Source of the DNA: Bacteroidota bacterium
GTDB lineage: Bacteria; Bacteroidota; Ignavibacteria; UBA10030; UBA6906
Direction: 5' to 3'
Length of the DNA: 64,000 bases
NCBI GenBank assembly: GCA_038247945.1
Contig: JBBRUI010000001.1
Location: 650 to 64,649, forward strand
Shown one piece after another: positions 24,749 through 42,115 of this stretch. Under the pieces are notes generated by a model that saw only the letters and a list, made by a program, of their open reading frames with translations, was not told the origin of the DNA and searched no databases. The first letter of the stretch is position 1; each line of letters starts with the position of its first letter. The position numbers and the translations under genes are program-made.

Positions 24749-25360
24749 TCAACGGTTGCTATTTTGGTCAGATTTGAGAGCAGCTTTGAGCCAGTTTCCT
24801 TGAGTTAGCCTAACTCCAGCAGCGTGAAGCCGGGAGTGCCCGTTCAGTTTTCTTCTCTTACCTCGACAGTCTGTGTAGGGTTTTTGTCGGAGATAGGCAA
24901 CGAGGAGATTAACATACACGACCGCAGTGTGTCGATGCTGAAACGCCTCAATGGTCTTGAACCGACGTTCGAGTTGTTTGTTGACGTTCTCCACCAAGTT
25001 GGTCGTCCTCGGCAATCCCTGGACACGATGGTGTTGCATGAGGCGGTTCCAGTGACGTTTGAGGAACGCAATTGCTTTCCGATGCGCTGTGCGAGGAGGT
25101 CGTCGCGTTCGCTGAAGGCGTTGGAACAGTTCGCTCGCTCTTGCTTCGTCCTTGGCACACATCTTCTCGTCTACCAGAAGTACACCATCCCATGATGGCT
25201 TCAATTCCTTGCTCATCTCCAGCGCTGTCTTGCATCGTCTCCCAAGTTCTTCAACCATCTTCTGCAACGAGGTGGGCGAAATCTTTCTTCCGCTCCGTTG
25301 ATAGACATTCTTGGCAATCACACGATAACTCTCCCGTCCCTCAACGTGTCGACGCACCAC
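24749..25360 (-). mobile_element. DDE transposase fragment (IS256/Mutator-like C-terminal motif)
   Basis: RTTNLVENVNKQLERRFKTIEAFQHRHTAVVYVNLLVAYL matches the C-terminal TTN-x-E-x-N...F motif of IS256-family transposases. At 203 aa it is too short for a full transposase and no inverted repeats were identified. Confidence 0.45.
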
Positions 25361-27755: not shown

Positions 27756-28021
27756 GAGTTTTCTCCTTGATTCGGTTTGGATTTTTAGATTGTGCGGTGG
27801 ATGAATGTAGAAAAGTTGAAGGGGGTAAGCAAGGTCTCTCCATCCTCACCCTGAGCGCAGTCCCGCTTGTTTTTTAAAGCGCTGAGGTCGTAGGTCGAAT
27901 CTCCCGATTCGATTTTTGACTCCCATTACTTTGCCCCTGGCAGATTGCCATTCTCGCGGCGTTTCGCTAACTTGCTTGCAGAAACCGCGCAAGAGGTTGC
28001 ACAAACGAATAAAAATGACAT

Positions 28022-28349
28022 GAAAACATCATCTCACCGACAGCGCGGAACCCGCGGCAACAGACAACATGCATACCTCCGCACAATCCGCAGCCATTGG
28101 GACACACTGAGGAAACGCTACAAGCTCAAGGAAATCGGAATCTTCGGGTCCGTCGTTCATGGTAAGGAAACGAAGAAGAGCGACATTGATATCCTGGTGG
28201 AGTACGAAGAACTGCCGGACCTTCTGGAGTTCATCAACCTTGAGAACTATCTGGAAGAGATACTGAAAAGGAAGGTGGACCTTGTCGAGAAACATGGGGT
28301 GCGTCCGGAACTGCGGGACCGCATATTCAACGAGGTGGTCTATTTGTAA
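28022..28349 (+). CDS. Minimal nucleotidyltransferase (MNT-type), orphan
   Basis: IGIFGSVVHGKETKKSDIDILVEY is the GS-x9-D-x-D nucleotidyltransferase motif. The start was taken at MKTSSH (109 aa). No HepT/HEPN partner is adjacent. Confidence 0.65.
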
Positions 28350-28394
28350 ATTGTAACCTGGTCGCAACAGAACGACCAATGAAGGAACATACAA

Positions 28395-28430
28395 CCCCCG
28401 GTCAGATGCTGGCCGGGGGTTTGTGGTTTT
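28395..28430 (+). terminator. Rho-independent terminator
   Basis: cccccgg-tcagatgctgg-ccggggg followed by tttgtggtttt, directly after the MNT gene. Confidence 0.5.
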
Positions 28431-28559
28431 GGGGGCATTAAGTGCCGAGGATTTTTTGACGGTAGCCGATGTCATTACATTATTGAAAATATAATGTTAT
28501 ATATTCTTGCATATATAGAAATTATTGTTTTCATTATAACGGCAGAATAAAGGAATCAA

Positions 28560-28793
28560 ATGAGCGTGAAATCCACCCGGAGAGAGCGGTTCGAAAGTGT
28601 TGCCGCGAGACGTACCCAGAAAATTCTGGATTTGCTGGATATCCTCGGGAACTGTTCAAATAAGAACAACTACGAATATACGGATACAGATGTCCGCAAA
28701 ATGTTCTCAGCAATCAGAGACAAAACGAAGAGTACCGAGGCGGCCTTCGGAAATGCAATTAACCGGTCAACAAAAAATAAATTCACATTTTAA
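28560..28793 (+). CDS. Small hypothetical protein (77 aa), first gene of the AT-rich island operon
   Basis: RBS AAGGA upstream. Its stop TAA overlaps the ATG of the next gene (TAATG). Confidence 0.4.
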   Translation: MSVKSTRRERFESVAARRTQKILDLLDILGNCSNKNNYEYTDTDVRKMFSAIRDKTKSTEAAFGNAINRSTKNKFTF

Positions 28794-30793
28794 TGAAACC
28801 ATATTGGCATTATATAAAATTTCCAAGTAACGCTGGTTTGAGCAGAAAACCACCGAGATTTAAGGACTTAGGGGCTCACAATATTAAGACATTTGTTCGA
28901 GAGCTAATCCAGAACTGCCTTGATGCAAGACATAAAGATTTGCTCCCTGTCGAAATCAAAATTGTCATAAAAGAGTGGGGCAAAACAGAGCTCAATAACT
29001 TTCTCGGACTTCTTGGAGATGACCACGTAGAGCTTCTGAAAAAATCCTATGATGAAGCTTTACCGGAAGTTAAAGTTCACATGCAAGCTGGTTTCGATTT
29101 ACTCGGCGGGGAACATGAGAAAACCTTCTGTCTTATCGTTGAGGAAAGGAATTGCGTCGGCTTAACTGGCTCTGTTATTGGTTCAAATGACAAGTCACAC
29201 TTCAATGCGTTAGTTCGCCAAACCGATAACAACGAAAATAAAAGAGAACTATCAAACAGCGGCGGAACATGGGGAAAAGGTAGTTCTGTTTTTACGTACA
29301 TTTCAAAAATGTGGACTTGGTTCTGTTACACAAAATTGTCTGAGCCATGGAATGGCCCCACTGACAACATTGTTCACCAAAAAAGATTTATGGGCCGCTG
29401 TATGATTGCACCATTCTTTGACCAAGAAAACAACAACAGTTATTGGGGTGATGGTTGGTTTTGCAAGCCTGGTACCGATGCTTTTCCGTACATAAATGAC
29501 GATGCTGATGCAATGGCTCGAATATTCGGGATGAACTTGAGGAGTGATCCGGGTTGCACCTTTTTGATTCCCTTCTTGTCTCCCACGATTGAGAGTATGG
29601 ACAATTTGTCAATTGAGGCTCCAACCAAAGAAAATGTTTTTGCTGAATTTAGAACACAGATTCTGCAAAACTGGTTTATTCCGATTTTCAATGGCCAGCT
29701 AAGAGTCGTTGTTGAAAATGAGGATCAAGTTATTTCGATTGACAAGGAATATTTGATTAAGAATGTCCCTGAATTAAAATTCAAAGTGGCGATTCTCAAC
29801 TGGTATGAGCAGGGTTGTCCACCCGATAAAGCGTTTATTAAGGAAACCATTGAAGTTGACGTTCCGGGACTACAGCGAAGTTTGATCAACAAGTTTAATC
29901 GGTTTGCTGTTGTAAGAGAAAGGATAAAGCTTGATTTAATCATCAGAGTTTTATCGGAAGACGAGGACTATGAGAAAAACTGGGGAACTCAAAATACAGT
30001 TGCTTTAGCAAGAGGGAAAGGGATGGTTGTAACGCATTCTGATGAGGGAACGAAATTCTTAGCGAATTCGACGGATATACGAACTGAAAGTATCTTGTTT
30101 TCTGGTTTGCTTTCGGCTAGTGAAACCAATTTAGAAAAGAGGAAACATTTGGATTTGTTTTTAGCTTACTCTGAAAATCCTGCTCACAACAAATGGTGTT
30201 CTTATCCTGCTGATTACGCAATTTGTTTTCTTGAATTATTTGAAGGGAAAAGACCGGCTCCGGAAAAAACCATCAAAGATATTTACGATTCGATCTACCG
30301 GGCATTCAAAAAACTGTTTGACGAAGAAAAAATACAGCCACAGAATAAAGACATTTGCTCAATTTTTAAAAAACTTGCCCAACTCAAGACCTCAGGTAGC
30401 GAAGGAACCGGAAAAGCACTGTATTACATGAGAACCCCTGACGGAGTTACCAATCCGGCCATTACAGAGGGAAGATACAATTTTGAATTCAGGTTTATTC
30501 ATTCAGAGAATGTAACGGAGAATGTTCGCGTGGACTTTCGAAGTCTGATTGAATCCTTGGAAGGTGAAACGAATAAAGATTTTAATAATCTTGGGATATC
30601 GGACTTTGAAAACATTGAACTATTTGACAAGTTTGGAACCAAATATGGTGAAGGTAAGAACCCATCAATTCTGTTAAAACCCGGACATCCTTTAACTGTT
30701 AGAATTAGGACCTGCAACATTGACGGCAATCCCCGCTTCAAAAATCTGAAACCGATTATCAAAACTTCTGGTAGAATTGATATAGTATCATGA
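28793..30793 (+). CDS. GHKL/MORC-like ATPase-domain protein (666 aa), unknown function
   Basis: N-box RELIQNCLDA resembles the Bergerat-fold motif I (ELVxNAxDA). IVEERNCVGLTG is G1-like and NSGGTWGKGSSVF is G2-like (GxxGxGxxSxF). The remaining ~450 aa are unrecognised. Confidence 0.45.
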   Translation: MKPYWHYIKFPSNAGLSRKPPRFKDLGAHNIKTFVRELIQNCLDARHKDLLPVEIKIVIKEWGKTELNNFLGLLGDDHVELLKKSYDEALPEVKVHMQAGFDLLGGEHEKTFCLIVEERNCVGLTGSVIGSNDKSHFNALVRQTDNNENKRELSNSGGTWGKGSSVFTYISKMWTWFCYTKLSEPWNGPTDNIVHQKRFMGRCMIAPFFDQENNNSYWGDGWFCKPGTDAFPYINDDADAMARIFGMNLRSDPGCTFLIPFLSPTIESMDNLSIEAPTKENVFAEFRTQILQNWFIPIFNGQLRVVVENEDQVISIDKEYLIKNVPELKFKVAILNWYEQGCPPDKAFIKETIEVDVPGLQRSLINKFNRFAVVRERIKLDLIIRVLSEDEDYEKNWGTQNTVALARGKGMVVTHSDEGTKFLANSTDIRTESILFSGLLSASETNLEKRKHLDLFLAYSENPAHNKWCSYPADYAICFLELFEGKRPAPEKTIKDIYDSIYRAFKKLFDEEKIQPQNKDICSIFKKLAQLKTSGSEGTGKALYYMRTPDGVTNPAITEGRYNFEFRFIHSENVTENVRVDFRSLIESLEGETNKDFNNLGISDFENIELFDKFGTKYGEGKNPSILLKPGHPLTVRIRTCNIDGNPRFKNLKPIIKTSGRIDIVS

Positions 30794-31779
30794 GCGAAAA
30801 AATAATAGTAATAGAGCCATACAGAACCGGCGCCAACCTAATCTCTCTCAAGGGAAGAGTTTCCTTGGATGGAATTAAAGATGAAATAACGATTCCCGAC
30901 AGGAATCATCTGAATCTGTTCAATTATTCTTTGGATTCGGGAACGATACTTATCCCTCGGTCACATAATACCCTTACGCTAGATCTTACTACGCATTGGG
31001 AAAGTGCCAAAGGAATAGGCGATTTGAAATTCCTTATTGACGAATCAGAAAAGCCCGAAGAAACACTTTCACTTATTGTTGAGGTTTGGTGTAAAACCAC
31101 CCGGTGGTGCAGCGAGCAAAAAAGTATTCCCTTAAATGAAATCGGAACGAAACGTCAGTTCTCATTTAATATTCCGATTAACGAGGTAAAGGAGCTGCTT
31201 ACAGTGTCTGCTTTTGTTATAAGGGAAAAAGGAAACAGCAAAACATTTCTGCGAAAGGCCAGCACGAAGTATTCAATTTTGTCAGAAAGTGAAGAAATCA
31301 CAATTCAGATTGATGAACGAAAGGAGATCGGGGGTGCCTATCTCCCAATTGAACCGGAAAACATTGGTGATCGGATATTTGAGATAAGAGGTCTGGACAA
31401 TGAAACGGACATTCCGCGAATAAAATTTTCAGAAGATTTCAAAGAATACTTTACAAGAGATGATTTGCAGACTGTGAATACAACATTTATCATATCGATG
31501 TTCTATTTTCTGGATTCCTATTTGAAGTGGTTGATTTTTGTAAGCCGCAATGACCCCGCCGATAAAACATACAAAAGCGTGCTGGATTTATTTTCGCGAT
31601 ACTGTGATATAACCAAGTCGCAGCTCATAGAAATCGTTCAGATGGAAAAACATTCTCCCGAGCAAACAAAAGCATTTTTGAAACTGTCACAAGATCTGTT
31701 TAATGGTTTACAAACGAATGTAAATTTCAAATACAAGAAAGAGCTGTTGAAGATCATAAAAGCCGAAGCCGCAAAATGA
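30790..31779 (+). CDS. Hypothetical protein (329 aa), operon partner
   Basis: Start overlaps the upstream stop (ATGA). No recognisable motif. AT-rich. Confidence 0.4.
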   Translation: MSEKIIVIEPYRTGANLISLKGRVSLDGIKDEITIPDRNHLNLFNYSLDSGTILIPRSHNTLTLDLTTHWESAKGIGDLKFLIDESEKPEETLSLIVEVWCKTTRWCSEQKSIPLNEIGTKRQFSFNIPINEVKELLTVSAFVIREKGNSKTFLRKASTKYSILSESEEITIQIDERKEIGGAYLPIEPENIGDRIFEIRGLDNETDIPRIKFSEDFKEYFTRDDLQTVNTTFIISMFYFLDSYLKWLIFVSRNDPADKTYKSVLDLFSRYCDITKSQLIEIVQMEKHSPEQTKAFLKLSQDLFNGLQTNVNFKYKKELLKIIKAEAAK

Positions 31780-32567
31780 AAAACTACAAAAACAAAGTAG
31801 AGCACTTTATTAATCTTCTAGAGCCCGGAGAAGGCAAGAATGGGGAGCTATTCAATCTGTTCAACATTTACTCCCAAGACAGATTCAACGGATATCTTGC
31901 TAGTAAAATTGAATTTGAGATCACGGGTGACGTGACAGATGCCGAAGAAAAGATGTTGCAAAAAATAAAAAGCGAAATAAAACAATTACAGAAGCAATTT
32001 TCAGATGCAAAAGCAGAAAGACTGGAATTTGATTTAGCAAAAATTTTCCATTCGAATTTGAGGGAAATAGGTTTTGGCAGATTTCACGTCGATGATATAG
32101 GAATGTGGAGATGGATGTCAATGAATTATTTCAAAGAAGAAACATTTTGGCGTAGGGGGCTATCTGATCTCGATAAGAAAGAAATTCCAAAGGCGGCCAA
32201 AGCGACTTTTGAACATTGCATAGGAAAAAGAAGCAGAGACATCTTCCCAAGACGTTATTTTGTTATCGGCCAAAGACTATTCGACACAAACGAGAAGTAT
32301 GCTTTGATTGAAAAGTTAGCAGAAAAGTCAAGGGCAGCAAGAAGCGGCGGGTTCGGTAATCTTATCGCAAACATCGTTGAAACAAAACTGATTAGTCCGA
32401 ATGATTATGTTTCAAAAGTTATTTCTAAAATAATGTTCGCCGATAGAGGTATTGGCGACGATAAGGAAGTGAAAAATGCATTTGTTAGATACAATGCTTA
32501 CAGAAAGAGATTGCTTAATAATGCCTCTGAGAATGTATTCAGGAATGAAATTTGCCTTATGGAATGA
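31776..32567 (+). CDS. Hypothetical protein (263 aa), operon partner
   Basis: Start overlaps the upstream stop (ATGA). No recognisable motif. Confidence 0.4.
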   Translation: MKNYKNKVEHFINLLEPGEGKNGELFNLFNIYSQDRFNGYLASKIEFEITGDVTDAEEKMLQKIKSEIKQLQKQFSDAKAERLEFDLAKIFHSNLREIGFGRFHVDDIGMWRWMSMNYFKEETFWRRGLSDLDKKEIPKAAKATFEHCIGKRSRDIFPRRYFVIGQRLFDTNEKYALIEKLAEKSRAARSGGFGNLIANIVETKLISPNDYVSKVISKIMFADRGIGDDKEVKNAFVRYNAYRKRLLNNASENVFRNEICLME

Positions 32568-33792
32568 GCTGTTTCTTGATTGCTTTAGCAATCGCATTCG
32601 CCATCAACGGAGGAACCGCATTTCCGATTTGACGGAACATAGCCGTTCGTGAGCCCTCAAAATAAAAATCGTCAGGAAATGATTGGAGCCGTGCTGCTTC
32701 TCTCACTGAAATCGAGCGACATTGCGCCTTGCTCGGGTGTATGTAGTAATGCCCGTCTTTCGCTATGTGTGCAACTACTGTGTGGGAAATCCCTCTTCCA
32801 TCAACAACTTTGAAGCGGTCAAGAAACGCCTTTGTGTTTTTTTGTGTCTGCAATTCTTTTGGAATGTCCGTGTATTTAATCCGCTTTTTTGAATTTTTCC
32901 AGCTGTCAATAGCAAGTTTGTAAATTTTCAGATCGTTGGGGTTGTGTGGCCGACAAATATGTTGCGTATAGGAATCAATTCCATTTCTTAATCCAAATGT
33001 TTCAAGGTATCCATTTGTTTTGTTTGTGTATTTGCCTTTCGTTTTTACTTGCCCCGGCGAAAGACGAGAGAGGTCCGAGAAAATGCTTGCGGTCTTGAAA
33101 CTATGTTTGGAGATCTCGGGGTCGGGATAGGAGAACATCATATCTCTTTTCCATCCAACGATGATTACCCGTTTGCGGTTTTGTAGTACCCCATAATCTT
33201 TTGCATTCAGAATCTTATCCTCGGTTTTATAACCAAGTCTTTCAAAGTAATGTTTCAATCCCTGATAGTACTGACCATCATTTGCACTCAGCAAACCGGG
33301 AACATTCTCAAATACAAAAAGCTTCGGGTTAAACTCTTTCAGAAACTTTCCATACTGCACATACAATTTCACCCGATCGTCTTTTTCCCAATCAATAGCG
33401 TGTCTGCCTATGAGTGAATATCCCTGACAAGGTGGTCCGCCAATTATTAAGTCGAGTTCTTTCTTGTCCTGCTTATTCAGAATTGAATGAACGCTGTCAA
33501 AAATATCTCTCAATGAATCGTCAGAAATCTTTGCATTGATTACAGAATCAGAATGCTCCTTCGGCAAATGGCTGTACAAAATTTCTCTGGAAATATTTCC
33601 AGTAATGTAATCATAGTAAACATCGAGCCTGTTGTTCTCTTTCAGATAGTGAAAAGCAACTCGTGTTTTAATGGTCAAGCAAGCATCTGGATCCATTTCA
33701 ATGTGAGCAATGGGATTCATATCATTGCGCTTGAATCCCTCTGAAAGAGCCGATGTCCCGGCGAAAAGATCTATATAATTGAGTTGGTTCAC
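32557..33792 (-). CDS. dcm: DNA cytosine-5 methyltransferase
   Basis: Motif I DLFAGTSAL, motif IV GGPPCQGYS and an ENV motif FVFENVPGL. Confidence 0.85.
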   Translation of the reverse strand: MNQLNYIDLFAGTSALSEGFKRNDMNPIAHIEMDPDACLTIKTRVAFHYLKENNRLDVYYDYITGNISREILYSHLPKEHSDSVINAKISDDSLRDIFDSVHSILNKQDKKELDLIIGGPPCQGYSLIGRHAIDWEKDDRVKLYVQYGKFLKEFNPKLFVFENVPGLLSANDGQYYQGLKHYFERLGYKTEDKILNAKDYGVLQNRKRVIIVGWKRDMMFSYPDPEISKHSFKTASIFSDLSRLSPGQVKTKGKYTNKTNGYLETFGLRNGIDSYTQHICRPHNPNDLKIYKLAIDSWKNSKKRIKYTDIPKELQTQKNTKAFLDRFKVVDGRGISHTVVAHIAKDGHYYIHPSKAQCRSISVREAARLQSFPDDFYFEGSRTAMFRQIGNAVPPLMANAIAKAIKKQLIP

Positions 33793-34226
33793 TTAGTTTG
33801 TTTCTGCGCTGTTTTGCTCAATCGCCGTCCAACTTTGTTAAGGGTTTTCTCTCTTCTTTTCGGTTTCAGTTCGCATTCAAATATAACTATTACTTTCCAG
33901 CCTTCCTTACGAATTTTCAAAGAGTTTATCAAGTCTCTTTGTGAATTACCGCCAATCTTCTTTAGCCACCATTTAGTGCGGGTTTTAGGCGGAACAAAAT
34001 ATTTGCAACCTTCATGTCCATGCCAGTAGCAACCGTGAACGAAAATTACTGTCCTCAGCTTTGGAAAAACCAGGTCGGGTTTCCCGGGAAGGCGTTTGTC
34101 GTGAAGTCTGTAACGGAAGCCGCTGGTAAAAAGAAATTTTCTAACCAACATCTCAGGCTTGGTATCTTTGCCTTTGATTTGGCTCATGTTGAAGCTTCTG
34201 GTCCGTTTGTCGTGAACGTCTGCCAT
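33789..34226 (-). CDS. vsr: Very-short-patch repair endonuclease
   Basis: FVHGCYWHGHEGCKY and a ~145-aa length are typical of Vsr. It overlaps dcm by 4 nt. Confidence 0.85.
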   Translation of the reverse strand: MADVHDKRTRSFNMSQIKGKDTKPEMLVRKFLFTSGFRYRLHDKRLPGKPDLVFPKLRTVIFVHGCYWHGHEGCKYFVPPKTRTKWWLKKIGGNSQRDLINSLKIRKEGWKVIVIFECELKPKRREKTLNKVGRRLSKTAQKQTK

Positions 34227-34407
34227 GCGATAACATCGTCGAATACCCGAGTAACTTAAGATGATTTTTGCTCAGTTGAAAGACGATTTCATCTGTCGAA
34301 CGATCACCGTACATCCGCTCCGGGATATTGCAGTCCGAATTATTTTGCCATATACTGAACTAGCTCATCTCTTTTCTAATTCCAAACTTATCCCGAACAA
34401 CCCTCAG

Positions 34408-36624
34408 ATGATTTTCCTCCTTTCCCGGCCATTATGGATTTTCCTGTTTCTCATTTTAACGCCTGCTCGTTCAGCGTTTGCCCGGAATGATTTCTACGTT
34501 GCGCCCAACGGAAATGATTCCGGACCAGGCTCGAAGACGGCACCTTTCGCGACACTTGACCGTGCGCGGCAAGAGGCCCGGCTCACGAACGGAGTAACAA
34601 TATGGATCCATGGCGGAGTGTACCGGCTCACCCAAACGTTCAGGCTCGATAGCCTTGATTCCGGAATAGCTGAGTCCCCGGTTATGTACCGCTCAATGCC
34701 CGGTGAAGATGTGCACATCATTGGCGGCAGGATGCTCGATCCGTCTGTATTCAAGTCCGTGACCGACGAAAAGATTCTTCGGGTACTGACACCTGAAGCA
34801 CGCGGGCATGTCGTTGAAGCACAACTGCGTTCGTCAGGTATCAGTGATTTCGGAGAACTGAAACAATACGGCCACGGGCATCCCGTGGTGCCGGCTCCTC
34901 TGGAACTGTTCTTCAATGAACGGCCGATGCAGCTTGCGCGCTATCCGAATTGGGGCGACATACCCATGGGCAAGGTCATCGACCCGGGCTCGGTTCCGCG
35001 TGTCGGTGATTTTTCCAACCGGGGCGGCACGTTCGTCTATGCCGATCCGCGCCATGCGCGTTGGGCCGGCCTGGATGATGTATGGCTGCAAGGAACATTC
35101 ATGTGGGGTTACTCGGATGACATGATCCGCGTTGAATCCATCGACACGCTGACGCAAAAGATCAGGCTCTCTTCTCCGCATCTGTACGGTCTCGGAAGCG
35201 GCGAGCCCTTTCGGCAATATGTCGCTCTGAATATTCTGCAGGAGATCGATCAGCCGGGCGAATATTATCTTGACCGGAAAAGCGGAGTACTTTACTTCTG
35301 GCCGCCGGAACCGCTGAAGGGTTCCACCATTGCAGTTTCCGAACTTGAGCGGCCAATCATCGCGCTGGAAGGCGCTTCGCACATTGTCCTGCAGGGACTC
35401 ACCGTTGAATATGCCCGCGGCATGGGCATCTATATAGAAGGGGGTGAAGGAAATTTGATTGCGGGTTGCACTATCCGCAACACAGGAACGATTGGCATCA
35501 TGATGGGGCAAGGTTCAAAACCTCCGGCGAGTCCAGCAAGCGTTGATGCGGAAATATATAACGGAGTTGCCGTCAGCGAAGAAATCGGTGATCTGCAAAA
35601 TCATCTCTACATCGATACGGGATGGGACAGGAAGGCCGGCATGAAACAGGGAGTCCTTTCGTGCGATATTTACAACACCGGCTCCGGCGGAATTTTCCTT
35701 GGCGGCGGCAACAAGAAGCGGCTGATTGCGGGCGGCTCCTTTGTTGAGAATTGCCGGATTCACGACTACAACCGTCGCAACAAGTTTCTCTGGGCGGGAG
35801 TGAATGTTGACGGCTGCGGCAACAGGGTTGCACACAATGAAATTTACAACTCGGATTCCCAGGGAATCTATGTGCACGGTAATGATCACGTGTTCGAGTA
35901 CAACGTTGTCCATGATGTCGCGATGAATTCGGATGATACATCGCCCTGGTATCTTGGCCGTGATCCGAGCGACCGTGGAAATATCGTGCGCTATAATTTC
36001 TTCCATCATATCGGAAGACCGGATAGAATGGTGATGGGCATTTATCTTGATGACGGCACATGCGGCGCCACGATCTTCGGCAACGTATTGTATAAAGCCG
36101 CAACCTACGGAGCAGTGTACAGCAATGCCGGTCAGGACAATATCGTCAGGAATAATATCTTCATTGAATCGTACGGACCGGCGGTACACATGAAGTCGAT
36201 GTGGTACGACTTTGCAAAAGGCCAGATCAAACAGTACTTCGGTCCGGATGGAATCTTCCGCCGGCGCTTAACCAAATCTGTTGATATCTACACGCCTCCC
36301 TACAGCACGCGTTATCCTCAATTGATGAACTTCCTCGATCTCATGGCGGACAGTATTACCTACATCGGAATGCGGCCCCTGAGGAATATCATGGAATGGA
36401 ATGTTGTTTACAACTGCCCGGAGGTTCTCAGATTGACCGGGCCCTATGCAGCATTCGAAGCAAGGAACAACCTTGTCACCAGAGATGACCCGGGGTTTGT
36501 GGATGAGGTGAGAATGAATTTTGAGTTACGCGACGATGCAGCCGTCTACAAGAAGCTGAAAGGGTTTCAGAAAATTCCATTTGCGCGGATCGGGCCGTAC
36601 TCTGACAAGTACAGAAAGAAATAA
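34408..36624 (+). CDS. Secreted right-handed parallel beta-helix repeat protein (pectate-lyase-fold)
   Basis: Signal peptide (MIFLLSRPLWIFLFLILTPARSAFA) followed by NDFYVAPNGNDSGPGSKTAPFATLDRA, the typical N-terminus of beta-helix proteins. Confidence 0.55.
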   Translation: MIFLLSRPLWIFLFLILTPARSAFARNDFYVAPNGNDSGPGSKTAPFATLDRARQEARLTNGVTIWIHGGVYRLTQTFRLDSLDSGIAESPVMYRSMPGEDVHIIGGRMLDPSVFKSVTDEKILRVLTPEARGHVVEAQLRSSGISDFGELKQYGHGHPVVPAPLELFFNERPMQLARYPNWGDIPMGKVIDPGSVPRVGDFSNRGGTFVYADPRHARWAGLDDVWLQGTFMWGYSDDMIRVESIDTLTQKIRLSSPHLYGLGSGEPFRQYVALNILQEIDQPGEYYLDRKSGVLYFWPPEPLKGSTIAVSELERPIIALEGASHIVLQGLTVEYARGMGIYIEGGEGNLIAGCTIRNTGTIGIMMGQGSKPPASPASVDAEIYNGVAVSEEIGDLQNHLYIDTGWDRKAGMKQGVLSCDIYNTGSGGIFLGGGNKKRLIAGGSFVENCRIHDYNRRNKFLWAGVNVDGCGNRVAHNEIYNSDSQGIYVHGNDHVFEYNVVHDVAMNSDDTSPWYLGRDPSDRGNIVRYNFFHHIGRPDRMVMGIYLDDGTCGATIFGNVLYKAATYGAVYSNAGQDNIVRNNIFIESYGPAVHMKSMWYDFAKGQIKQYFGPDGIFRRRLTKSVDIYTPPYSTRYPQLMNFLDLMADSITYIGMRPLRNIMEWNVVYNCPEVLRLTGPYAAFEARNNLVTRDDPGFVDEVRMNFELRDDAAVYKKLKGFQKIPFARIGPYSDKYRKK

Positions 36625-36962: not shown

Positions 36963-37223
36963 ATGAAACCACTCGGGAACATCGGCATTGGAGAAATCGT
37001 CCGCTTTCATCGGACGAGGGCAGGGTTAACGCAGAAAGCTCTTGCTGACCTCGCTGGGGTAGGCAAGACTGTGGTGTTCGACATTGAGAAGAATAAACAA
37101 TCCGTGCAATGGGATTCGCTCAACAAAATTTTCAATGCATTGAACATCACGATTGTGTTTGAGAGTCCGCTCATGAAAGAACTGAATGAAGAGTTAAAAA
37201 AGGCCGGCGATGAAAAGAGCTAA
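36963..37223 (+). CDS. hipB: HTH (XRE-family) antitoxin, HipB-like
   Basis: GLTQKALADLAGVGKTVVFDIEKNKQ is a helix-turn-helix. First gene of three overlapping ORFs. Confidence 0.7.
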   Translation: MKPLGNIGIGEIVRFHRTRAGLTQKALADLAGVGKTVVFDIEKNKQSVQWDSLNKIFNALNITIVFESPLMKELNEELKKAGDEKS

Positions 37224-37521
37224 TGTCTCCATGCATGGCGTTCCGGCAGGAACGCTTGAGGAACACGAGCAGGGAAAGAAGTACGTCTTCCGTTATCGAG
37301 AAGAATACTCGGGCCCTGCGATCTCATTGACGATGCCTGTCGCGCAGAGGGAGTTTGCATTCGAAATCTTTCCTCCTTTTTTTGACGGTGTTCTTCCTGA
37401 AGGAGTCCAACTCGAGGGTCTCCTCCGGCAAAGGAAAATAGACCGGAGTGATTTTTTTTCGCAACTCACAGCAGTCGGTCAGGACCTCGTCGGAGCAATC
37501 ACTGTCGAAGAGGCGGAATGA
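37210..37521 (+). CDS. HipA N-terminal subdomain protein (HipS-like)
   Basis: 103 aa; SMHGVPAGTLEE...FRY...FFDGVLPEG matches HipA N-terminal subdomain 1. It overlaps both neighbours. Confidence 0.6.
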   Translation: MKRANVSMHGVPAGTLEEHEQGKKYVFRYREEYSGPAISLTMPVAQREFAFEIFPPFFDGVLPEGVQLEGLLRQRKIDRSDFFSQLTAVGQDLVGAITVEEAE

Positions 37522-38447
37522 AACGTTGTCCGATTACATATGACGAAATCGGGAAGGGCGAGTATTCGGACCGCGGACTTCGCCTTCTCTCACGGCAATT
37601 GAAGGGATTGCAACCGCTTCCGTACACAGCGGAAGAGCAACGCCTCGAAGCTGTACGAAGAGCGGCAAAGATGTCGATCCAGGGAGTGCAGGCGAAACTG
37701 AGCGCCCGGCTGAACGTGAAGGAGGAATGCTTCGACGTAGTGGATACTGGCGGCCGGTTTATTTTGAAACCGCAAAGCAGCATGTACCCGGAGCTTCCAC
37801 AGAATGAAGATCTTACGATGCGACTTGCAGCCGAAGCCGGAATAGAAGTGCCGCTGCACGGGATGGTATACTCGAAGGATGGGTCGCTGACGTATTTCAT
37901 CAATCGTTTTGATCGTGTTGCCAGAGGCGGCAAACTCGCTGTTGAAGACTTTGCCCAGGTGCAGGGAAAGACGAGAGACACGAAGTATCAGTCGAGTATG
38001 GAGCAAGTTGCGGCAACGATTGAAACGTACTGCACGTTTCCGGCAGTGGAGAAGGTGAAACTGTTCAGGCTGACGCTGTTCAACTTTCTTGCGGGGAATG
38101 AAGATATGCATCTGAAGAATTTCTCGCTCATCAATCGCGACGGAAAGGTCGAGCTTTCACCTGCATACGACCTTCTCAACACAACGATTGCCGTACGGGG
38201 TGCAACGGAAGAACTTGCGTTGCCATTGCACGGCAAGAAGAATAGTCTGAAACGAAGCGACGTTGTTGACTATTTTGCACTCGAACGCCTTGCGCTAAAG
38301 CCGAAGATAGTTGACAGTGTTCTGGAGGGGTTTGTCAAAGCTGCAGGTCGATGGCAAGAGCTGATCGGGATCTCTTTTCTTTCTGATCCGATGAAGCAAT
38401 CATATCTCTCGCTGCTGGATGAGAGAAAAAAAAGACTCGAACTATAG
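37518..38447 (+). CDS. HipA-family Ser/Thr kinase toxin, C-terminal kinase portion (HipT-like)
   Basis: LAGNEDMHLKNFSLINRDGKVELSPAYDLLNT is the HipA catalytic-loop motif. At 309 aa it lacks the N-terminal subdomain carried by the upstream ORF. Confidence 0.7.
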   Translation: MKRCPITYDEIGKGEYSDRGLRLLSRQLKGLQPLPYTAEEQRLEAVRRAAKMSIQGVQAKLSARLNVKEECFDVVDTGGRFILKPQSSMYPELPQNEDLTMRLAAEAGIEVPLHGMVYSKDGSLTYFINRFDRVARGGKLAVEDFAQVQGKTRDTKYQSSMEQVAATIETYCTFPAVEKVKLFRLTLFNFLAGNEDMHLKNFSLINRDGKVELSPAYDLLNTTIAVRGATEELALPLHGKKNSLKRSDVVDYFALERLALKPKIVDSVLEGFVKAAGRWQELIGISFLSDPMKQSYLSLLDERKKRLEL

Positions 38448-38717: not shown

Positions 38718-40871
38718 TTAAAGCATGCCGCTGCGTTTTCTAATAAACCACTCCACCGCAAACAGTAACACAACAAGGGCGAGCATGTATTTCCAGTTCC
38801 ACAATTCAAACTCCCGCGTCAGGTGAATGTCGCGGGGAACGAACGAGGGCAGGTTCTTCAGTCTGCTGAAAATATCCGGGAAGCCGGAGGGCGTGTAGAA
38901 CTCCCCGCCCGTTCGCGCTGCAAGCTGTCGCAGTAACTGCACGTTCATGCGCGTATCCTGAAACTCAAGAGCCAGCTCGCCCACCGAAAATCTTCCTCTG
39001 TCTTCGCCCAACGGTTGCCCGTCCGATGAGGCGACAGCCTTGTACGAGTAATCGCCCTCGCCCGGACCTTCGAGCGTTCCTTCGTAGCGTCCGTTGCCAA
39101 TCGGCCGCAGAGTTGTCTCATATTCTTTTCCGCTCTGTTGCGCGACAAGCTTTATCTGCGCATTCTCAACGGGGTTTGCGCTCGCGTCGTACACCTGTCC
39201 GGTAAACTCAATCGGCTCGCCCTGCGTGAATGCAGTTTTGATTGGTGTTACTTTCACGGGACGGTTATCGTCGCGTGTCGTCAACCAGCGGATGCTGTTG
39301 GAAAGAAATGTTGCAAGAAGTTTTTCCGTTTCGGGAATACCCTGCGCCATCAGGCGCCAACGCCAGAGTCCGTACCCGAGAACAGCGAGCGACTTCTGCT
39401 TGTTGACATTGCGAATCAGAACAAGCGGGTCGTTGAGGACAATGGCGTTGATCTTTGTTGTAGCAAGAACCGTTGCCTCTGCTTTTGCCTTGCTCACGGT
39501 TTGAGTTTTGAACAGCGGCGGCAACCGTTTCCAGCCCGCCTCGTTCTGTTCCGCTCCAGCCGCAAGAATGGGATGGTTCTTTTGTGAAGGTTCCATGAAC
39601 ACAAGCTGCTCGTTTGCGGATGTGTTTGTGCGGGTGAACGGAAGGAACGAGCCGAGCGACGCAAGCTTTTGTTCGTCGACGTTCTTTCCATCGATAAAAA
39701 ATATTGGGGTTGACCTTCGCTGAATCGAAGTCCGCACCGGGTCGAGCAGCGCGTTGCCTGTTGACGCAATCGGAAAGCCGATAAACATGATGCAATCCGA
39801 GGAGTCGAGAAGCTGGGCCGTCATCGATCCCTCATAAAAAGCAGACGAGGATTTCTGTGTCAGCGACCGGACGTCGAGGTTCTTGTCTTCACGCAATGTT
39901 TGCTTGAGAACCGAAACATCGGGCGAAGGGCTGCCTGCGATTATGAGAATCCGCAGCTTGCTTTTGAGAATGCGGGCGAGGAATGTCCGCTGGTTGTTCG
40001 CGGTGGTCAGCTCGCCGGGCAGGCGCGAGACGCGCACGGAATATTTTTTTATTCCTTCACCATCGGGCGTGTATGAAAGGCGCACTGAATATTCCCGTGT
40101 ACCTTCTTCGAGTGTAAGCTGCGAGCGGCCGAGTTCCTTGCTGCCTTCAGAAAGAATGACCTCAACTTTCTCGCCCTTGAAGCCCGAGCTTTTGATCGTG
40201 ACGTCAACAGGAACTTCAGTCTGGTTGTACACTAATTCATTCGTCAGCACTTTCGTGATGAGGATATCCTTTTGTTCCGTCGAGTCGCCGATGCCGACGG
40301 TGAAGAGAGGAATCCCGATTTCCTCCGCCTCGTATAGCGGGTTCTGCCCGAGATTGTAACTCCCGTCGCTGATCAGCAACGCAGCGCCGATATTGCTCCG
40401 GTCTTTTTCTTCTGCGACCTTGCGAAGCGCTGCTGTAATATCCGTCGCCCCTTCGTCTATGTGGAGAGAGTCGATTGCACCGGCCTCGATTTGCTTTGGC
40501 TTCGCTCCGAACGCGTAGAGACGGATTTCATCGGCGGAGTTCTTGAATCCCTTTTCCGCGAGAAAGCGTTTCAGAATTTCCGCCCGGTCGCCTGTCCGGT
40601 CTTTAATGCTCATGCTCTTGCTGTTATCAACCAGCACAGCAAGAACAGGATTTTGGGTGGATGTAGAAATAAAGCGGAGCAAAGGCTCGAAAAGAAATAC
40701 CAGCAGCAACGCGAGAGCAATCGACCGAAGAACGATTAGAATAATTTTTTTGGAACGGGGGATCGGCGGGACGGTCGTCCGGTAAAAAAAAATCGAAATA
40801 GCTGCGGCGATGAGAACGAGGAGAAGGACAACGAACGCGGAAACTGTAAAGCTGAGAGTAATGTCAGGCAT
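38718..40871 (-). CDS. vWA-domain membrane protein (BatA-like)
   Basis: N-terminal TM segments, a vWA region and a C-terminal TM segment, immediately downstream of a MoxR ATPase (the classic MoxR-vWA pair). Confidence 0.6.
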   Translation of the reverse strand: MPDITLSFTVSAFVVLLLVLIAAAISIFFYRTTVPPIPRSKKIILIVLRSIALALLLVFLFEPLLRFISTSTQNPVLAVLVDNSKSMSIKDRTGDRAEILKRFLAEKGFKNSADEIRLYAFGAKPKQIEAGAIDSLHIDEGATDITAALRKVAEEKDRSNIGAALLISDGSYNLGQNPLYEAEEIGIPLFTVGIGDSTEQKDILITKVLTNELVYNQTEVPVDVTIKSSGFKGEKVEVILSEGSKELGRSQLTLEEGTREYSVRLSYTPDGEGIKKYSVRVSRLPGELTTANNQRTFLARILKSKLRILIIAGSPSPDVSVLKQTLREDKNLDVRSLTQKSSSAFYEGSMTAQLLDSSDCIMFIGFPIASTGNALLDPVRTSIQRRSTPIFFIDGKNVDEQKLASLGSFLPFTRTNTSANEQLVFMEPSQKNHPILAAGAEQNEAGWKRLPPLFKTQTVSKAKAEATVLATTKINAIVLNDPLVLIRNVNKQKSLAVLGYGLWRWRLMAQGIPETEKLLATFLSNSIRWLTTRDDNRPVKVTPIKTAFTQGEPIEFTGQVYDASANPVENAQIKLVAQQSGKEYETTLRPIGNGRYEGTLEGPGEGDYSYKAVASSDGQPLGEDRGRFSVGELALEFQDTRMNVQLLRQLAARTGGEFYTPSGFPDIFSRLKNLPSFVPRDIHLTREFELWNWKYMLALVVLLFAVEWFIRKRSGML
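38743..38814. repeat. Direct repeat copy 2 (authentic 3' end of the vWA gene)
   Basis: See 36651..36722. Confidence 0.7.
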
Positions 40872-41080
40872 GTTGTTAATTACCGGGCACGGTTGCTTCG
40901 GTCTACGACCTCGTAGAGGAAATCCACTTCACGCTGTTCGTTCATAAGTGCAAACCGTAACCAGTAAAAGCCAAAGCTGAACCACCAAGACACCAAGGCA
41001 CGAAGTTATAATGCGAGACAATAATTCGATATCATAAAACTCTTGGTGTCTTCGTGTCTTGGTGGTTTTCTTTTCAACTT

Positions 41081-42115
41081 CTAGGTGGCTTCCTGAACCA
41101 ACCGCTCAACTATGTCGATTGTTGATACGCCGTCGGCTTCAGCGTTGAAGTTCGTGACGAGCCGGTGTCGCAGCACGGGACCCGCCATCGCCCGCACGTC
41201 GTCGATATCGGGCGTGTGGCGGCCGGCGAGGATTGCGCGTGTCTTTGCGCCAAGAATTAAATATTGCGATGCGCGGGGACCGGCACCCCAACTGATCCAA
41301 TCTTTGATAAACTTGGGCGTTCCCTCAGACTTCGGGCGGGTCTTCGTCGACAACCGCACTGCAAACTCCACAACATTATCCGCAACCGGAACGCGTCGTA
41401 CAAGATTCTGGTAGAATGAAATTTCTTCGCCGGAGAGAACATGACTCAGCGACGGCGCCAACTGGCTCGTTGTATTCTTCACGATCTGAACTTCTTCGCT
41501 CATCGAAGGGTAGTCCAACCACAGATTGAACATGAAGCGGTCGAGCTGGGCTTCGGGTAGCGGATATGTTCCCTCCTGCTCGATCGGATTTTGTGTTGCG
41601 AGAACGAAGAACGGCTCCTGCAGCGTGTAGGTTTTTCCGGCGGCAGTTACGCGGTGTTCTTGCATGGCTTCGAGCAATGCAGCCTGAGTCTTAGGCGGCG
41701 TTCTGTTGATCTCATCGGCAAGGACAATGTTTGCAAAGACGGGACCCTGGATGAACTTGAACAGCTTCGATCCGGTTGCAGTATTCTCTTCGATGATTTC
41801 CGTGCCGGTGATGTCGCTCGGCATCAGGTCGGGCGTGAACTGAATGCGATTGAAGGAGAGGTCAAGAACCTGCGCAACGGTCCGGATGAGCAATGTCTTC
41901 GCAAGTCCGGGCACGCCAACGAGAAGACAGTGGCCGCGGGCCAACAGTGCGATCAAAAGCTGTTCGACAATCTTATCCTGCCCGACAATGACCTTGGCAA
42001 TTTCTTTCCGCAGCGCTTCGTAGGAATGTTGCAGTTGCGCCGCGGCTTCGACGTCGTTTACCTGTCCCAGAGTTGAAAGCTTAGCCAAAATAATTTCCCC
42101 TTCTGTCAAAAACAA
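41081..42115 (-). CDS. MoxR-family AAA+ ATPase
   Basis: Walker A GVPGLAKT, a Walker B region and 344 aa are typical of MoxR. Confidence 0.85.
   Translation of the reverse strand: MFLTEGEIILAKLSTLGQVNDVEAAAQLQHSYEALRKEIAKVIVGQDKIVEQLLIALLARGHCLLVGVPGLAKTLLIRTVAQVLDLSFNRIQFTPDLMPSDITGTEIIEENTATGSKLFKFIQGPVFANIVLADEINRTPPKTQAALLEAMQEHRVTAAGKTYTLQEPFFVLATQNPIEQEGTYPLPEAQLDRFMFNLWLDYPSMSEEVQIVKNTTSQLAPSLSHVLSGEEISFYQNLVRRVPVADNVVEFAVRLSTKTRPKSEGTPKFIKDWISWGAGPRASQYLILGAKTRAILAGRHTPDIDDVRAMAGPVLRHRLVTNFNAEADGVSTIDIVERLVQEAT

Follow-up and report, generated by a model that had tools for sequence, protein, structure and literature searches.

A conserved GHKL-ATPase operon convergent with dcm and vsr on an AT-rich island of a Bacteroidota bacterium: a candidate methylation-gated defence cassette

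An AT-rich island with two convergent operons

Positions 28440-34260 of a 64,000-nucleotide (nt) stretch of contig JBBRUI010000001.1 from a Bacteroidota bacterium (the whole stretch is referred to here as the window) carry a cassette of six genes. Four of them, designated S, A, B and C, form one operon, and the other two encode the C5-cytosine DNA methyltransferase Dcm and the endonuclease Vsr. The cassette is real, conserved and uncharacterised, and across related loci the four-gene operon is linked to a C5-methylase.

The operon lies on the plus strand and opens with S (28560-28793; 77 amino acids, aa), followed by A (28793-30793; 666 aa), B (30790-31779; 329 aa) and C (31776-32567; 263 aa). 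S and A meet in a TAATG junction with a 1-nt overlap, and the A/B and B/C pairs overlap by 4 nt each (ATGA), forming a translationally coupled operon that converges with a second operon on the minus strand. In the latter, vsr (33789-34226; 145 aa) is the upstream gene and overlaps dcm (32557-33792; 411 aa) by 4 nt. The 3' ends of C and dcm share 11 nt. The original prediction, made from the letters of the DNA, had described the four coupled open reading frames (ORFs), their overlaps and the 4-nt coupling of dcm to vsr as they are found here; it was also right that the operon ends inside dcm, by 11 nt and not the 10 nt it gave.

The same prediction had called the segment AT-rich. Its guanine-plus-cytosine (GC) content is 0.395, against 0.495 for the remainder of the window, and among 466 non-overlapping windows of the same size elsewhere the minimum is 0.461 (mean 0.494, standard deviation 0.015). 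The AT-richness is therefore real and not a chance fluctuation. At third codon positions, the island genes A, B, C, dcm and vsr have a GC content of 0.37-0.46 and the short S gene one of 0.53, compared with 0.60-0.70 in the genes flanking the island. The segment is confirmed as a horizontally acquired island.

Protein A, a predicted GHKL ATPase with an S5 transducer

Protein A is laid out as a GHKL domain (residues ~25-270), an S5-like domain (~280-440), a helical region holding an ExxxH motif (E461-H465), a disordered linker (514-540) and a C-terminal Ig-like beta-sandwich (~541-666). Its AlphaFold2 (AF2) model has a predicted local distance difference test (pLDDT) score of 83 and is matched structurally by MORC3 (score 13.1, 283 residues aligned), the SMCHD1 ATPase module (13.1, 325 residues) and the N-terminal domain of Escherichia coli MutL (12.3, 284 residues), after which come MLH1, MORC2, TopoVI-B, Hsp90 and sacsin. 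These alignments span both the GHKL domain and the S5 transducer domain. The predicted structure shows A to be a GHKL+S5 ATPase of MORC/MutL architecture, the fold anticipated when the first large protein of the operon was proposed to be a GHKL/Bergerat ATPase and modelling was suggested as a check.

All four Bergerat motifs can be placed in A: motif I is RELIQNCLDA (36-45; E37/N41/D44), motif II EERNCVGLTG (117-126; E118, G123 and G126), motif III GGTWGKGSS (157-165; G157-G163) and motif IV PGCTF (253-257; G254/T256). Motifs I-IV and ExxxH are conserved over the Bacteroidota, gammaproteobacterial, cyanobacterial and haloarchaeal homologues. At the usual adenine-binding Asp of motif II, Glu is found throughout the Bacteroidota clade and Asp in the distant homologues. 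Past the S5 domain, in the helical region, the segment SENPAHNxW (460-468) is invariant; its core E461-N-P-A-H465 is unchanged in 34/34 homologues and reads AEPPxH or AENPAH in distant ones. H452 and D454, considered as a metal site, were rejected, as these residues vary in distant homologues.

A strongly conserved ExxxH at the C-terminal part of S5 is diagnostic of paraMORC2, a family common in cyanobacteria (Iyer, Abhiman & Aravind 2008, PMC2292703). On the strength of this one motif, A probably belongs to paraMORC2. It has the GHKL domain followed by an S5-fold transducer that is typical of MORC proteins and lacks their sequence signature: A and its 34 homologues leave the HATPase_c_3 and HATPase_c models unmatched even at E values up to 10, so A is not a MORC protein in the strict sense. 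The sole family match is that of the N-terminus (residues 29-177) to the PADLOC candidate PDC-M33A (1.1e-12). An hhalign comparison of the A profile with a HATPase_c_3 protein from a related locus (L001) gives a probability of 0.1, and the GHKL relationship of A is thus not evident from sequence alone. Close homologues (33-77% identical) come, wherever an organism is assigned, from Bacteroidota, mostly Chitinophagaceae and relatives.

Proteins B, C and S

The model of B consists of one or more N-terminal beta-sandwich domains of Ig-like type (~10-214) and a C-terminal helical bundle (215-328), which suggests that B is probably an adaptor or sensor subunit and not a nuclease. The sequence IDERK (174-178) was considered as the ExK part of a PD-(D/E)xK motif and rejected, since the model there consists of beta-sandwiches.

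Protein C is rich in conserved Arg and Trp. The domain PF19866 (DUF6339) is precomputed for protein P0076, which is identical to C, and for nearly all homologues; a fresh Pfam scan of 32 members of the C family gave no PF19866 match, the Pfam copy used apparently being one without that model. Across the DUF6339 superfamily, the alignment keeps a D..(L/M)W(H/R)(W/Y)L segment and several Arg. C has no match to PDB, PADLOC, PHROGs, NCBIfam or any nuclease family. When the C profile was run exhaustively with HMMER against 1.84 billion proteins, 27 representative clusters and no domain fusions came up; the weakest match, P0216, was rejected as low-complexity. A cryptic nuclease fold had been expected in B or C, an expectation that neither the Ig-like sandwiches and helices of B nor the residues conserved in C support.

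In 27 related loci, A is preceded by a homologue of S that is 38-79% identical to it. S is thus well conserved, and it probably serves as a small helical subunit or as a regulator. Scans of S, A, B and C against Pfam, NCBIfam, PHROGs and PADLOC yielded only the PDC-M33A match of A, and comparison with PDB sequences, both as single proteins and as profiles, returned nothing meaningful; weak SDR and keratin matches in the PDB searches were rejected as chance. Cluster counts among 5.8 billion proteins are 75 for A, 48 for B and 67 for C, and the three families are rare and patchy in distribution.

Dcm and Vsr

Dcm matches PF00145 (1.2e-61) and TIGR00675 (188 bits, above the cutoff), and its motifs FAGTSAL, GPPCQGYS and ENV read intact in the translation, which shows, at the level of sequence, an intact C5-cytosine DNA methyltransferase. 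Its best PADLOC model is DrmMII (PDLC02649), matched over the full length at 1.1e-162. Vsr matches PF03852 (8.4e-35) and TIGR00632 (134 bits, cutoff 97.85). The segments PGKPD and HGCYWHGHEGC of Vsr, which we take to correspond to the catalytic and zinc residues of E. coli Vsr, are likewise intact, and the family matches show it to be a predicted canonical very-short-patch-repair T:G mismatch endonuclease. With coupled genes and each protein above its NCBIfam cutoff, the two have the hallmarks of a Dcm-Vsr modification/repair pair, and Dcm provides the cognate methyltransferase that a type II restriction-modification (R-M) system calls for.

Linkage of the operon to a C5-methylase

Forty-five related loci were gathered, and the six window proteins were mapped onto each. 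S-A-B-C is colinear and tightly packed in every locus where the contig permits. Linkage was counted over non-redundant loci with at least 1.5 kb of flank on both sides: a C5-methylase lies within 1.5 kb in 17/17 such loci, and Vsr is found in 15/16 assessable loci; in L045, Dcm is present and Vsr is absent within 7 kb. Wherever no methylase was detected, the contig ends too early. The neighbourhood survey that had been proposed as a check therefore returned a dcm/vsr linkage far beyond chance.

The methylase stands in one of two places: downstream and convergent, in which case the 3' ends often overlap, or upstream in the same orientation. Other neighbours vary by locus: some are housekeeping genes, others integrases, type I S subunits, toxin-antitoxin (TA) and abortive-infection (Abi) genes or further defence candidates. 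In the vicinity of the cassettes, TA, Abi and R-M genes are frequent. Helix-turn-helix (HTH) genes of the R-M-controlling, C-protein-like kind adjoin the methylase in L043 and L001.

Four lineages, 345 to 545 aa long, make up the partner methylases, and the divergence of A is uncorrelated with that of Dcm (Spearman 0.08, p 0.26, 188 pairs). L022 and L024 have A proteins that are 93% identical and Dcm proteins that are 29% identical; for the window and L003 the values are 77% and 31%. This swapping of methylases beside a near-identical S-A-B-C implies that the module reads 5-methylcytosine (5mC) generically, or borrows the specificity of the methylase, or that the partner methylases share one target; unless they do share a target, the swapping argues against a fixed specificity within S-A-B-C itself.

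In three independent lineages, a classical restriction enzyme lies between C and dcm, of the MvaI/BcnI type in L001 and L026 and EcoRII in L022. In L010, a long-read assembly that is probably redundant, EcoRII is split into two ORFs. The operon had been put forward as a candidate restriction or defence system; it is not simply the restriction enzyme missing beside the methylase and Vsr, since in these lineages an intact EcoRII or MvaI/BcnI-type enzyme is present in addition to it. The neighbouring classical enzymes are all of the CCWGG/CCNGG kind and the window Dcm is nearest DrmMII, so the partner methylases may share a target.

Two departures from the standard arrangement were seen. L011, L013 and L017 have, in place of S, a protein of ~350 aa with a ribbon-helix-helix (RHH)-like N-terminus. 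In L014 (447-2812), L032 (1909-3576) and L033 (338-2005), A is truncated (to 516 or 272 aa), and the gene after it encodes a NOV_C (PF13020) protein in place of B and C; either the effector differs in this variant or the locus is decaying.

Separately, a second GHKL-methylase cassette, unrelated to the first, stands back to back with S-A-B-C in L001 (4051-9444). Its genes encode a 901-aa HATPase_c_3/HATPase_c protein, two further proteins (302 and 175 aa), a C5-methylase of 342 aa and an HTH protein, a set similar to the HEF_HK/Response_reg_2 cassettes of PMC8011034. The same vicinity also contains a CARF-kinase-AAA protein and NOV_C proteins.

Deep relatives in proteobacteria, archaea and cyanobacteria

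A gammaproteobacterial metagenome-assembled genome (L016) and a TARA contig (L040) have the order Dcm-Vsr-S-A'-B'-C', in which A' is ~24% identical to A with an hhalign probability of 99. The gammaproteobacterial A' matches PDC-M33A at 2.1e-26. In a tblastn search of plasmids, A-like genes were found on five haloarchaeal megaplasmids and on Synechococcus elongatus pIITB6_1. Four annotated records, three haloarchaeal and one cyanobacterial, show an A-like gene, then a B-sized gene, then a gene that NCBI names 'DUF6339 family protein'; in an older Halobacterium DL1 record, the corresponding positions are taken by genes of matching size whose products are labelled simply as hypothetical proteins. 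Profile comparison with these distant triads gives probabilities of 97-100% for A, 85.6% for B and 27.6% for C, and at this last value the distant link of C rests on the shared DUF6339 annotation.

In 3/4 haloarchaeal records examined, a cytosine methylase is found 0.2-5 kb from the triad. Two triads flank dcm in Halorussus, Dcm lies ~5 kb from the triad in Halomicrobium, and the order in Halobaculum is an RHH protein, A-B-C, a SprT-like gene, a HATPase_c_3 protein and Dcm. Two copies are present on the Synechococcus plasmid; in one of them A, B, DUF6339 and Dcm form a single operon with translational coupling. A DUF4420 nuclease occupies the position of S in Synechococcus, and the combination of a helicase with a DUF4420 nuclease occurs only with this homologue. 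The archaeal and cyanobacterial cassettes have Dcm and no Vsr. Together, these comparisons show that A, B and C (DUF6339) are an ancient, co-inherited triad, obligately linked to a C5-methylase of any lineage.

Relation to known systems

The closest described class is paraMORC2 (PMC2292703), with which the window cassette shares a GHKL+S5 ATPase that does not match HATPase_c_3, an ExxxH after S5, and a neighbourhood of C5-methylase and Vsr. The third MORC/paraMORC operon type of that study is a helicase-plus-nuclease pair, and the Synechococcus helicase and nuclease are exactly this pair. The window cassette differs in having no helicase and no evident nuclease of restriction-endonuclease fold, and its constant partners, B with its Ig-like and helical parts, DUF6339 and the 77-aa S, are not described in the text of PMC2292703. 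The paraMORC2 class is itself a computational prediction only.

Among the candidate systems of PADLOC-DB v2.0.0, PDC-M33 shares the N-terminal GHKL region of A (29-177; 1.1e-12 to PDC-M33A). It differs in that only this N-terminus aligns and B, C and S are unmatched, so the full PDC-M33 system is not recovered. A PADLOC run had been suggested as a check; it gave PDC-M33A for A and, as the best model, DrmMII for Dcm, with no complete named system. The HEF_HK/Response_reg_2 cassettes (Bellieny-Rabelo et al. 2021, PMC8011034) likewise place a GHKL protein and small partners beside a C5-methylase and Vsr, including in Bacteroidota, but their GHKL protein is of another family, one that matches HATPase_c_3 (hhalign against A, 0.1), and their partner proteins are unrelated. 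Compared with MutL acting with Vsr and with eukaryotic MORC and SMCHD1, A is without the MutL C-terminal endonuclease/dimerisation domain and without a CW domain or coiled coil, and identity is ~10%. DISARM class 2 and BREX also pair a methylase with an ATPase module of several proteins in which no nuclease is obvious, and Dcm is nearest to DrmMII (1.1e-162); the PADLOC scan found no homologue of DrmA, DrmB (DUF1998), DrmC or a BREX protein, and the cassette is neither system.

A literature search on DUF6339, PDC-M33, this gene set and GHKL proteins with Vsr or in anti-phage roles found nothing directly relevant, and the only experimentally studied paraMORC-type defence that it turned up is the nuclease-fused paraMORC3/Shedu protein VcSduA. 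The suggestion of a novel system thus stands in part. The ATPase class and its methylase link were already predicted computationally, as R-M-linked, in 2008, and a related ATPase is the PADLOC candidate PDC-M33A; what is new is the constant partnership of B, DUF6339 and S, the absence of a helicase and of an evident nuclease, and the cross-domain linkage to Dcm.

A proposed methylation-gated module and its alternatives

The reading we favour, at a rough probability of one half, is that the mobile six-gene cassette is a paraMORC-type, methylation-gated defence module. In such a module, Dcm would mark the host DNA as self, and Vsr would repair the T:G mismatches that arise from 5mC deamination, limiting the mutagenic cost of 5mC. 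A dimer of A would act as an ATP-gated DNA clamp, in the manner of MutL and MORC, assembled with B through Ig-like domains and with S, and C may be the Arg/Trp-rich subunit that reads DNA or its methyl state. The A-B-C-S complex would then engage DNA that lacks the methyl mark and inactivate it. In favour of this reading are the MORC/MutL-like fold of A, the constant methylase linkage, the swapping of methylases and the distant triads with Dcm, and also the C-protein-like HTH genes, the PDC-M33A matches, the AT-richness and rarity of the cassette and the TA, Abi and R-M genes around it.

The R-M framing of the original prediction holds, while the defence function itself is one that we infer. 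Several observations weigh against the methylation-gated reading. No named system of the DefenseFinder type matches the cassette, and PADLOC has no model for B, C or S. Beyond GHKL+S5, no nuclease fold is among the structural matches of A, no nuclease domain was detected in the model of B, and the DUF6339 superfamily alignment has no conserved acidic/lysine or histidine set typical of nucleases. The three lineages with an intact classical restriction-methylase-Vsr unit beside S-A-B-C indicate that the module is not needed to complete R-M. The Glu for Asp replacement in motif II means that ATP binding might be weakened in the Bacteroidota clade. In the window, neither CCWGG nor the other motifs examined are depleted to a telling degree, a result that is uninformative, and the finding of no A homologue in phage genomes says nothing either way.

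It is unlikely that S-A-B-C is an accessory of Dcm and Vsr, with A as a MutL-like clamp complex whose task would be to load or stimulate Vsr for very-short-patch repair, or alternatively to direct or limit Dcm. A functional interaction between MutL and Vsr is established, E. coli MutL stimulating Vsr (cited in PMC2292703), and such a role would suit the presence of Vsr in 15/16 assessable loci, the fact that most cassettes encode no nuclease besides Vsr, and a Synechococcus triad translationally coupled to Dcm alone. Against it, L045 and the archaeal and cyanobacterial cassettes have Dcm without Vsr, and four extra genes on a rare, mobile AT-rich island would be odd help for a repair enzyme that works alone in most bacteria.

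An ATP-dependent restriction enzyme of fixed specificity, such as CCWGG, with its nuclease hidden in C and the partner methylases protecting the same site, is quite improbable. It would account for the convergent, overlapping layout, which resembles that of R-M genes, for the EcoRII and MvaI/BcnI families of the adjoining enzymes and for the nearness of the window Dcm to DrmMII; the DISARM methylase modifies CCWGG. It is hard to reconcile with four Dcm lineages that differ so widely in length (345 to 545 aa), with a DUF6339 superfamily that has no conserved acidic/lysine catalytic set and with the failure of C to match any nuclease family.

Very little probability attaches to S-A-B-C being an independent defence or selfish module that merely travels with dcm-vsr and does not depend on methylation: defence genes do cluster, and some loci, L001 among them (CARF kinase, second GHKL-methylase cassette, NOV_C proteins), lie in clear defence islands, but the methylase is adjacent in 17/17 loci across four methylase lineages and two arrangements, frequently with 3'-end overlap or translational coupling, the linkage holds in archaea and cyanobacteria, and no other neighbouring gene is conserved.

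Island borders and flanking genes

On the left, a hairpin terminator of the upstream MntA-like gene, with a 13-pair stem followed by a T-run, lies at 28393-28421 on the plus strand, and GC falls directly past it, which sets the left edge of the island. An AT-rich leader at 28475-28559 (plus strand) is the putative promoter region of the S-A-B-C operon, presumed from sequence. The intergenic region at 34227-34407 (minus strand) is presumed to contain the promoter of vsr-dcm and to mark the right edge; GC climbs from 34500 onward. The beta-helix protein to the right of the island probably starts near 34408, at its signal peptide. Neither direct repeats flanking the island nor tRNA genes were found, so no integration mechanism is indicated.

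The flanking genes encode a peptidase M2, an MntA-like nucleotidyltransferase, the beta-helix protein and a HipB/HipS/HipT-like trio. The MntA-like gene (27945-28349; type VII antitoxin family, PADLOC PDC-S09 at 3e-27) adjoins the island on the left with no HepT partner alongside, and a HepT/MntA pair lies near the cassette of L043. About 3 kb to the left of the island, a 203-aa ORF (24749-25360) has a weak, partial match to IS66 transposase and is probably a fragment. At 36963-38447, consecutive genes encode an HTH_3 protein (86 aa), a 103-aa protein whose only domain is the N-terminal one of HipA, and a 309-aa HipA_C kinase, an arrangement like that of tripartite HipBST-type toxin-antitoxin modules. 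Further on, at 38718-42115, a MoxR-type AAA+ ATPase (AAA_3, bpMoxR) stands beside a protein with a weak, sub-threshold VWA_2 match; the pair resembles MoxR-VWA and is unrelated to the island.

Significance

The cassette is compact, with four small genes plus dcm and vsr, it has no evident nuclease, and it occurs in two domains of life, which makes it a clean system in which to study how cytosine methylation is read by a clamp of the MORC/MutL type. Should it prove to be an accessory of repair or methylation, it would be an example of a MutL-like helper dedicated to Dcm and Vsr. Should it prove to be a defence system, it would bring in a new family in which three proteins are orphans, and DUF6339 would gain a function.

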